This document shows, in pieces, positions 26,528 to 27,709 of a DNA stretch of 64,000 nt; the stretch's first letter is position 1; the number at the start of each line of letters is the position of its first letter. Origin of the DNA: a virus. A model generated the notes under the pieces. It was not told where the DNA came from. It made no database searches and worked only from the letters and a program-made list of their open reading frames with translations. The position numbers were made by a program, and so were the translations under genes. Location: positions 48,590 through 112,589 of the IMG/VR virus record IMGVR_UViG_3300025012_000043, one strand, 5' to 3'.

Positions 26528-27709
26528 TTATTCATTATAAATATCAAAATGCACTGTGTCTTCCTTTAAAGGACCAGTTGATCCCCATAGAATTGGAATA
26601 TTATACTCTTCTTCAAATGCCCTAATCCAAGCTTTAGATTCTTGTGAAAGATCTTCGGCTTTGTTAACTTTATAATCTTTGACATTTAAATAATCAAGGA
26701 AGCACAAACCGATACCAGTGAACCGATTGATCATTGCAGTCTTCTTAAATTGTTCATGAGAAAATTCAAATACCCGCCTAACCCTTTTTGTAACTGTTGT
26801 GATCTCCTTAAAAGAGCCTTCTGGTGCACCAGCCCTTCTTTCAACCTCTGCCCACGTAATTTCCTGAGAACCCATAGAACCACTATCACCAGCCACCCTA
26901 ATAGGATAAGGACGAATAACGCCAATAATGTCAGTAACCACTAGTGGTGAAATACCGGCCTCACTTACCCATCCTCCAGCGTTGGTGTCCCTTGATGTAG
27001 TTTTTGGATATAAACCGTGGTGCAATGAAAGGACTGATCCCTGCGTCCCCTCCAATAGCACCGACTCACCATCGTCGATTAACTGATTAATCATTTCTGT
27101 CGTATCACAACAGAATTCCTTAATCCCTGGCCAATCTTTAGCTAAAACCACTGGTCCACGTGGTGATGCACCACGCCAAATCTTATCTGCCAATGCAGCA
27201 CCACACCCTTCACGCGTTGATCCAACCATCTTCCATAGGTCATTAGCACTTAACTTATCACATTTTGTGCACGGATCAACGATTTCTGGAAGTCCCTGCT
27301 TAATATCCTGCCATGCCTTACATTCCATTGGCTTATGAGCATAATCACAAGGCTCAGCCTGTCCATATTCGGCCAACGTATGTTTAGGCTCAATAATAAC
27401 CACGTTTGGATGAATAAAAACACGTTTTTCAATGTTTGGATCGTATTTCTTAATCATTTCAATCTCTTTAAAGAATAACTCTGGAATGATCATCCCACCG
27501 GCACCAATGATCAACTTGGCATCCATCCGGGTCCACCCACAAGGGATTGTCTGCATGACGACTTTATCGCCATTATAATAAATTGTGTGTCCAGCGTTAG
27601 GAGCCCCAGTTCTCACGTGTACACTATAGTCGTCAGCAATAACATTGGCAATCTTGCCCTTGCCTTCTGATCCAGCGGCCCCTCCCACCAATACTGTTAC
27701 TTTAGACAT
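26528..27709 (-). CDS. purZ: PurZ/PurZ0-type N6-succino-2-amino-dAMP synthetase (PurA paralogue)
   Basis: PurA fold with GSEGKG (PurA catalytic Asp->Ser), PNAGHT, GST, EGTQG, YP.TTSRD, YPIRV, E.TTVTKRVRRV, CFLD, STGP. Confidence 0.85.
   Translation of the reverse strand: MSKVTVLVGGAAGSEGKGKIANVIADDYSVHVRTGAPNAGHTIYYNGDKVVMQTIPCGWTRMDAKLIIGAGGMIIPELFFKEIEMIKKYDPNIEKRVFIHPNVVIIEPKHTLAEYGQAEPCDYAHKPMECKAWQDIKQGLPEIVDPCTKCDKLSANDLWKMVGSTREGCGAALADKIWRGASPRGPVVLAKDWPGIKEFCCDTTEMINQLIDDGESVLLEGTQGSVLSLHHGLYPKTTSRDTNAGGWVSEAGISPLVVTDIIGVIRPYPIRVAGDSGSMGSQEITWAEVERRAGAPEGSFKEITTVTKRVRRVFEFSHEQFKKTAMINRFTGIGLCFLDYLNVKDYKVNKAEDLSQESKAWIRAFEEEYNIPILWGSTGPLKEDTVHFDIYNE

Follow-up and report, generated by a model that had tools for sequence, protein, structure and literature searches.

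The stretch of DNA considered here, called the window, makes up the last 64 kb, at the 3' end, of one IMG/VR virus contig of 112,589 bp (record IMGVR_UViG_3300025012_000043, given the handle G000; the window is C1:48590-112589). On its minus strand, at positions 26528-27709 of the window, lies a gene for a synthetase of the PurZ group. The encoded protein of 393 amino acid residues has a serine-type catalytic site, a GTP-type nucleotide site and an insertion with four cysteines at approximately residues 113-150. Judged from its genes, the source phage probably makes the deoxynucleoside triphosphate of 2-aminoadenine (dZTP, where Z is 2-aminoadenine) and replaces most or all of the adenine of its genome by Z. 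It would do so through a pathway in the style of the PurZ0 phages, set in a large phage with DnaE as its replicative polymerase. The candidate parts of this pathway are a new GTP-type, four-Cys branch of PurZ, three helper proteins resembling a dUTPase (Dut), a nucleoside 2-deoxyribosyltransferase (NDT) and a nucleotide kinase, and an adenosine-deaminase-family protein as candidate for the removal of adenine.

The open reading frame (ORF) of the synthetase is intact, starts with ATG and has the N-terminus MSKVTVLVGGAAGSEGKGK. The protein belongs to Pfam family PF00709 (Adenylsucc_synt, 1.4e-50) and to PHROG 1211, '2-aminooxy adenylosuccinate synthetase' (4.4e-66). An initial annotation of the window, made from the letters of the sequence, had described a PurA paralogue with Ser in place of Asp in the motif GSEGKG. 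This substitution is present as S14, which replaces the catalytic Asp13 (E. coli numbering). The GST, SR, IRV and TTVT motifs named in the same annotation were all located in the ORF, at residues 163-165 (GST), 238-240 (as TSR), 270-272 (IRV) and 304-307 (TTVT). Ser occupies the catalytic position in 238 of the 264 closest proteins from two very large protein collections, and because of this the Ser of the window protein is not a chance substitution. The remaining 26 relatives have Gly (3) or Asp (2), or were unmatched by the motif search pattern (21).

Two further segments set the protein apart from PurA. The tip that begins with TTVT reads TTVTKRVRR, compared with GTVTGRRRR in PurA, where the general form of this tip is G-[AT]-[TV]-T-G-RRRR. 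A short insertion follows IRV, so that the window protein reads YPIRVAGDSGS and PurA reads STRVGAGPF. The Ser, the TTVT-K-x-V-RR tip and the short post-IRV insertion are shared with both PurZ and PurZ0. Seven alignment columns separate eight PurZ and PurZ0 references from six PurA references; the window protein is PurZ-type at five of them and PurA-type at none. In the solved PurZ structures, the Ser in place of Asp13, the Thr of TTVT and the post-IRV insertion, which pushes Val towards C2', favour deoxyguanosine monophosphate (dGMP) over inosine monophosphate (IMP) (PMC8342488). The predicted reaction is the joining of dGMP and Asp to give succino-2-amino-deoxyadenylate. The segment CFLD at residues 336-339 aligns with TKLD of E. 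coli. The guanine-reading Asp is thus kept, as the initial annotation had stated, together with the STGP motif, and these features suggest that the phosphate donor is probably GTP.

The structure of the protein was modelled with AF2 at a pLDDT of 90. The nearest solved structures by sequence are PurA from Pyrococcus horikoshii (6e-47) and the PurZ0 encoded by Gordonia phage Archimedes (PDB code 7VF6, 7.5e-39), followed by PurZ of phiVC8 (3e-31) and of S-2L (3e-19). A Foldseek comparison of the model gave TM values of 0.92-0.94 for P. horikoshii PurA, 0.84 for phiVC8 PurZ, and 0.80 each for PurZ0 7VF6 and S-2L PurZ. One element that sets its clade apart is an insertion of about 35-50 residues directly before the GST loop, with four Cys in the arrangement C-x8-10-C ... 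C-x2-C. It is conserved among the window protein and 14 further sequences from large phages, and occurs in no PurA, PurZ or PurZ0 reference. The insertion is modelled at a pLDDT of 69-84, and it is possibly a zinc-binding module placed ahead of the GST nucleotide-phosphate loop.

The position of the enzyme among its relatives was assessed in an 85-sequence tree with E. coli PurA as the root, for which the sample was picked by similarity to the query. All Ser-type proteins form one clade (SH-aLRT 98), separate from E. coli PurA and from the PurA of Methanobacteriales, which has the catalytic Asp. PurZ (phiVC8, S-2L, Acinetobacter phage SH-Ab 15497 and Kokobel2) and PurZ0 (Ghobes, Archimedes, Wayne and Keanu) each form a 100-supported clade that does not include the window protein. 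The window protein is found in its own 100-supported group with three metagenomic proteins to which it is 70-87% identical, beside others from large contigs. The members of its four-Cys clade come from large contigs (60-178 kb) of uncultured phages. An exclusive union of the window group with another group is rejected by the approximately unbiased (AU) test in each case tried: PurZ0 (p 0.010), PurZ (p 0.001) and Asp-type PurA (p 0.003).

These results support placing the enzyme within the Ser-type radiation of PurZ and PurZ0, apart from ordinary PurA, in line with the initial annotation. They also reject three more familiar assignments. PurZ proper is rejected by the AU test and by the CFLD, STGP and GSEGKG segments that the protein keeps. 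PurZ0 proper is rejected by the AU test and by the full support of the PurZ0 clade without the window protein. Against ordinary PurA stand the Ser, the residues at the signature columns and a further AU test. The likeness to PurZ0 proposed in the initial annotation is correct for the GTP-type site, which is kept as in PurZ0, but it does not extend to membership of the PurZ0 clade. The diversity of PurZ in metagenomes is much wider than the two characterised clades.

It is useful to compare the protein and its phage with the systems already described. The PurZ0 actinophages (Archimedes and Ghobes of Gordonia, Wayne of Arthrobacter) have in common with it the Ser, the guanine-reading Asp, the STGP-type C-terminal motif, R-x-G-x-PNAGH, TTVT-K/N-x-V/I-RR and the short post-IRV insertion. 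PurZ0 is said, in the work of Tong et al. of 2023, to use GTP. Like the phage described here, PurZ0 phages carry dUTPase and NDT/DNPH1-fold accessory proteins instead of DatZ and MazZ, and no DatZ. However, the identity of PurZ0 to the window protein is only about 30%, and PurZ0 lacks the four-Cys insertion, which in this comparison amounts to about 35-40 residues. The genomes of PurZ0 phages have 43-82 kb, compared with approximately 150-180 kb here, and they encode a PolA-type DpoZ or a primase-polymerase, while G000 encodes DnaE. G000 also differs by the lack of a DUF5664 match and by its extra kinase and adenosine-deaminase-family genes.

The ATP/dATP-using PurZ of phiVC8, S-2L and SH-Ab 15497 has the same fold, Ser, TTVT tip, post-IRV insertion and predicted reaction. 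Its motifs read GSTGKG, NFCN/NFAQ/NFAN and GFGP/GWGD, whereas the window protein keeps the guanine-reading Asp and STGP. The phages of this group have DatZ, MazZ/DUF550, and DpoZ or PrimPol, none of which was found in G000 or in its closest relative, G001. The short archaeal PurA (P. horikoshii 5K7X/2D7U; NCBIfam model NF003295) shares the compact scaffold and the GTP site with the window protein. However, it has the catalytic Asp, the tip GTVTGRRRR and neither the post-IRV nor the four-Cys insertion, and it is split from the window protein in the tree. The best match in a cultured phage is the PurA-like protein of Bacillus phage vB_BpsS-140 (55 kb; 31.8% identity, 3e-44), which is Ser-type. 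This phage shares the gene order of purA-like gene, conserved hypothetical protein and recA, and carries adk and dut genes. Its PurA-like protein branches next to the PurZ clade and is without the four-Cys insertion, and the part of its genome that was inspected has no annotated DnaE.

Three contiguous genes at 10671-12180 are the principal helper candidates. The first encodes an adenylate-kinase-like nucleoside monophosphate kinase at 11629-12180 (-), with matches to PF13207 (1.1e-13), ADK (1e-9) and TIGR01351 (9.7e-15); it is a candidate dZMP/dNMP kinase. The second, at 11116-11628 (-), encodes an NDT/DNPH1-fold protein (PF15891, E 0.0024) and is a candidate DmtZ-like dAMP N-glycosidase or transferase. 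The third is a dUTPase-family protein at 10671-11144 (-), with matches to PF00692 (1.4e-23) and to TIGR00576 (101 bits, slightly under the cut-off of 102.55). Its fold is that of the trimeric dUTPases. It shares 35-40% identity with Ghobes DutZ and with the Wayne DutZ domain, and is a candidate DutZ-like dATP/dGTP diphosphohydrolase. In the PurZ0 phages, DutZ turns dATP and dGTP into monophosphates, and DmtZ hydrolyses dAMP or uses it to pass deoxyribose phosphate on to the Z base (PMC12884076). The pair of Dut and NDT proteins is the published accessory set of these phages (PMC12884076; bioRxiv 10.1101/2025.10.22.683976).

The fold of the second protein is confirmed at the level of its predicted structure. 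Its ESM Atlas score is 0.93, the ten best matches that bear a family are all NDT-family clusters, and the set of PF05014 and PF15891 makes up 12 of the 30 Atlas matches. The AF2 model (pLDDT 76) has as its top Foldseek matches nucleoside 2-deoxyribosyltransferases, DNPH1/Rcl and MilB, the same set as the structural neighbours described for DmtZ. The sole match to this ORF in a collection of 50,697 phage records is gp53 of Archimedes, a homologue of Ghobes DmtZ (E 7e-3), and gp53 of Ghobes matches it at E 0.001. The residues Tyr6, Asp12 and Glu83 (in GTWLE) are present, and the equivalent of the catalytic Asn is not securely aligned. The positions corresponding to Tyr6 and Asp12 are those mutated in the study of Ghobes DmtZ (PMC12884076).

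The trio is contiguous in G000, G001 and G007, and it is also present in G004. In G002 (L111:2350-3249) and G009 (L115:1839-2699) the Dut domain is preceded by an N-terminal extension of approximately 160 residues that has no Pfam match and corresponds in size to the DmtZ-DutZ fusion of Wayne. The PurZ-negative relative G023, which was recognized by its DnaE, lacks PurZ, Dut, NDT and kinase alike.

A fourth adenine-related gene, at 49158-50102 (-), encodes an adenosine-deaminase-family protein (PF00962, 6.7e-60), a candidate sink for adenine or deoxyadenosine. Its score against PF00962 is 203 bits, well above the cut-off, and against TIGR01430 it is 210 bits, slightly under the cut-off of 216.55; the best PDB match is the adenosine deaminase 6n9m (4e-35). 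The metal ligands and the family motifs HQHVDG, HAGE and IGHG are retained. The motif TDDP is the exception, reading TDNP in G000 as well as in G001, and for this reason the substrate of the protein is uncertain. Homologues are found in the PurZ-positive records G001, G003 (beside kinase and Dut genes) and G006, and are absent from the PurZ-negative G023. The gene occurs in four of the eight DnaE-encoding PurZ-positive records, compared with 8 of 50,697 phage records, and is very rare in phages. In the published descriptions of the Z pathway that were checked, no mention of a deaminase was found. The gene inventory of the initial annotation was correct in listing no HD or MazG gene, but it had missed both the trio and the deaminase-family gene.

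The absence of an HD or MazG gene extends beyond the window. Pfam models of HD, MazG and PolA found no match at E 0.1 in the whole of G000 (approximately 76% complete) or G001 (approximately 92%). Searches by tblastn with DatZ, MazZ, DUF550/DUF5664, DpoZ and PrimPol proteins of phiVC8, S-2L, SH-Ab 15497, Ghobes and Wayne also found none of them in G000 or G001. The datZ and mazZ genes that the initial annotation had thought to look for in the rest of the genome are thus found in neither the 112.6-kb contig nor its 178-kb relative. PolB and PurB are likewise absent from G000 and G001. Since PurB is missing, the phage would depend on its host for the lyase step.

DnaE, the family C polymerase alpha, at 1892-5464 (-), with PHP, polymerase, fingers and HhH domains, is the only DNA polymerase found. 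The earlier view that it is the only replicative polymerase of the window is upheld, as neither PolA nor PolB is present and no BLAST match to PrimPol or DpoZ was obtained. The unusual fingers segment pointed out earlier is also present: the protein has ARYMWPKAH, to which AGYGFNKSH (Y754-H760) corresponds in E. coli. In G001 the motif reads YLWNRAH, and the Pro of YMWPKAH is unique to G000. Trp at the position of Phe756 occurs in seven of 83 phage DnaE proteins, all within one clade of eight that has a support of 99. Six of these seven come from PurZ-positive records, and the seventh from a fragment, half complete, of a phage resembling G001. The only PurZ-negative member of the clade, G023, has Phe.

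YMWPKAH was rejected as a Z-specific motif, since its Pro is unique to G000 and Phe is kept in the PurZ-positive G002 and G010, which belong to other DnaE clades. The change from Phe to Trp tracks PurZ within one DnaE clade and not everywhere. It is an interesting lead only: the change amounts to one or two evolutionary events, and therefore no inference on Z-selectivity is justified. A separate observation is that DnaE of G004 has an apparent insertion, starting with CLDG, right after the His of the motif.

The source phage is uncultured. The contig G000 has 36% G+C and no terminal repeat, nearly all of its genes are on the minus strand, and with a CheckV completeness of approximately 76% the full genome would have roughly 150 kb. 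The record G001 is a syntenic relative of 178,008 bp, 92% complete, with a PurZ-like protein 84% identical to that of the window. PurZ-like genes are found on at least ten further large IMG/VR records (95-190 kb) besides G000. DnaE is encoded by eight of the 11 large PurZ-positive records, G000 included, which bears out the earlier claim of a large-phage lineage. No PurA-family gene was found in any of 46 other DnaE-bearing viral records of at least 42 kb each. A megablast search with positions 20-40 kb of the window against the 50,697 phage records gave no match. PurZ homologues in metagenomes are not new as such. Full-text literature searches found no paper on a link between PurZ and either DnaE/Pol III or phages of large or jumbo size. 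To our knowledge, the Z-genome phages described so far are all small (approximately 40-80 kb) siphoviruses or podoviruses with a family A DpoZ or a primase-polymerase.

The composition of the genomes offers a further indication. If A:T pairs are shielded from restriction by Z, avoidance should persist only at sites that lack both A and T. Palindromic hexamers were counted and compared with the numbers expected from a maximal-order Markov model. In G000 all eight palindromic hexamers made only of G and C are absent (0 compared with 39.2 expected), while non-palindromic G/C-only hexamers are at expectation (274 compared with 269.7; observed/expected ratio, O/E, 1.02). The palindromes that contain A or T have an O/E of 0.92.

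Among genomes that are related to one another, six PurZ-positive large phages gave A/T-containing O/E values of 0.91-0.97 and G/C-only values of 0.00, 0.34, 0.10, 0.96, 0.32 and 0.14. The corresponding values for four PurZ-negative DnaE phages are 0.63-0.87, and 0.75, 0.18, 0.71 and 0.54. The known Z phages phiVC8 and S-2L have A/T-containing values of 0.88 and 0.92 and G/C-only values of 0.35 and 1.00, respectively. This trend agrees with the protection of A:T pairs by a modification, and it is suggestive only.

Other genes of the window lie around those discussed above. The synthetase gene is followed on the minus strand by a gene at 24836-26131 (-) for a protein of 431 residues with a CxxC...CxC segment, which has no Pfam or PHROG match and is matched by gp50 of vB_BpsS-140 at 9e-6. 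A single-stranded DNA-binding protein of the gp32 kind is a weak lead for its identity (Atlas score 0.78). A RecA/UvsX-like recombinase is found at 23669-24760 (-) (PF00154, 1.7e-36). Beside the trio, at 7908-10652 (-), lies the large chain of ribonucleotide reductase (PF02867, 7e-122), with an Intein_splicing match at residues 277-421 (7e-14) and a C-terminal TSCPD domain (8e-14); it is predicted to supply deoxynucleotides. On the other side of the trio, a DnaG-DnaB primase-helicase fusion at 12220-14865 (-) belongs to the replication module.

Within the same module, a group-1 glycosyltransferase gene is placed directly upstream of dnaE, at 5430-6488 (-). Downstream of dnaE there is a TnpB-like gene at 582-1658 (-), with matches to Cas12f1-like TNB (1.5e-20) and OrfB_IS605 (3.3e-13), for which the ORF was assigned by inference. 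An ORF of 616 residues at 28241-30091 (-) has only a weak BRCT match (E 5.6e-4), and Pfam found no ligase adenylation domain in it. The region further along contains genes for a peptide deformylase at 36855-37343 (-) (5e-38), a MoxR-like AAA ATPase adjoining a DUF2201 metallopeptidase/VWA protein at 38618-40989 (-), and an endonuclease VII at 37732-38337 (-). A second copy of endonuclease VII was found among the ORFs of the window that were swept, and the Pfam sweep also gave a dCMP-deaminase-like match (PF00383, 9.6e-6) without an assigned position.

The proposed pathway can be outlined as follows. The PurZ-like enzyme would join dGMP and aspartate with GTP as the donor, and the host PurB would then free dZMP. 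The phage kinase, together with host kinases, could convert dZMP to dZTP. The NDT-like enzyme may destroy dAMP or shift its sugar phosphate onto the Z base. The deaminase would drain adenine or deoxyadenosine irreversibly to hypoxanthine or inosine, by which route they would return to the pool of guanine. DnaE would place dZTP opposite T, chiefly as a result of the depletion of dATP.

Several observations weigh against this reading. With NF038379, the NCBIfam model of PurZ (an 'exception'-type model of 293 positions), the window protein scores 199.9 bits, below the cut-off of 300. Its score with the archaeal-type PurA model NF003295 is higher, at 264 bits (cut-off 368). With TIGR00184 it reaches 211 bits against a cut-off of 395.55, and it is therefore under the curated cut-off of all three PurA/PurZ-type NCBIfam models that were scored. 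Residues F12 and T262 of phiVC8 PurZ are said to contact the 2-amino group; in the window protein these positions are Ala and Asp, and in its close relatives the position of F12 is Trp. The protein lies outside both characterised clades, in a clade that is itself uncharacterised. Among the helper proteins, canonical dUTPases are about as similar to the Dut-like protein as DutZ is, and the E-values behind the link to DmtZ (1e-3 to 7e-3) are weak. G000 is, moreover, an incomplete contig (approximately 76%). The palindrome pattern is equally compatible with any modification of DNA directed at A or T, and it has exceptions: G/C-only depletion is not seen in the PurZ-positive G006 or in the Z phage S-2L, and it is seen in the PurZ-negative G017.

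A bolder form of the proposal would make this the first fully Z-substituted genome of 150-180 kb to be copied by a family C DnaE. Its polymerase would be adapted to Z by the change of Phe756 to Trp, beside the Lys that binds the incoming deoxynucleotide, and possibly by the PHP proofreading domain. A novel adenine-to-guanine funnel, made of the Dut-like, NDT-like and deaminase-family proteins, would replace DatZ. In this full form the proposal is doubtful.

Another explanation is that the Ser-type enzyme of the four-Cys clade acts on another substrate or has another role, that the phage has ordinary A-containing DNA, and that the Dut, NDT, kinase, deaminase and ribonucleotide reductase genes belong to general salvage. 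The uncharacterised clade, the score under the cut-off of the PurZ model, the lack of the two phiVC8 residues at the 2-amino group and the exceptions in the palindrome signal are all consistent with it, and dUTPases, kinases and ribonucleotide reductases are common in large phages. However, all Ser-type PurA homologues tested to date are dGMP-specific according to the cited papers, and the missing catalytic Asp speaks against chemistry on IMP. A restriction-enrichment study placed 28 of 29 PurZ-clade genes on contigs enriched for dZ. The pairing or fusion of NDT and Dut, which are present and absent together with PurZ, is also difficult to describe as unrelated salvage. We consider this explanation unlikely.

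It is also conceivable that the enzyme does make succino-amino-deoxyadenylate but that the substitution by Z is partial, or that dZ nucleotides serve some other purpose, with a non-selective DnaE and an incomplete removal of adenine. This would agree with the failure to find a DatZ-type dATP triphosphohydrolase or DpoZ in G000 and G001, and with a DnaE motif change that is not common to all PurZ-positive phages. Reconstitutions in E. coli were partial without the matching replication proteins, as cited in the bioRxiv paper. On the other hand, the PurZ0 phages, which are also without DatZ, are treated in the literature as Z-containing (PMC12884076). G000 has four separate adenine-handling genes, and the genome-wide tolerance of A/T-containing palindromes fits extensive rather than sporadic protection. 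Partial substitution is quite unlikely in our assessment.

Finally, an ordinary PurA acting as an auxiliary metabolic gene that raises the synthesis of AMP from IMP during infection would agree with the intact GTP site and with the best solved-structure and NCBIfam matches, which are to archaeal-type PurA, but the Ser in place of the catalytic Asp here and in the 238 relatives, the AU tests against a union with Asp-type PurA and the presence in G000 of genes that should break adenine nucleotides down instead of raising their supply make it very improbable.

The proposal that the phage makes dZTP and places Z throughout its genome, if true, would extend Z-DNA to large phages that use the bacterial family of replicases. 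It would provide a natural test of whether Z-selectivity is possible, or necessary, for a family C polymerase. The synthetase would represent a third, structurally distinct branch of PurZ, with a GTP-type site and the four-Cys insertion, and an adenosine-deaminase-family enzyme would join the candidate genes for the exclusion of adenine. The wider diversity of PurZ matters for the prediction of modified genomes and for the choice of enzymes for laboratory Z-DNA.

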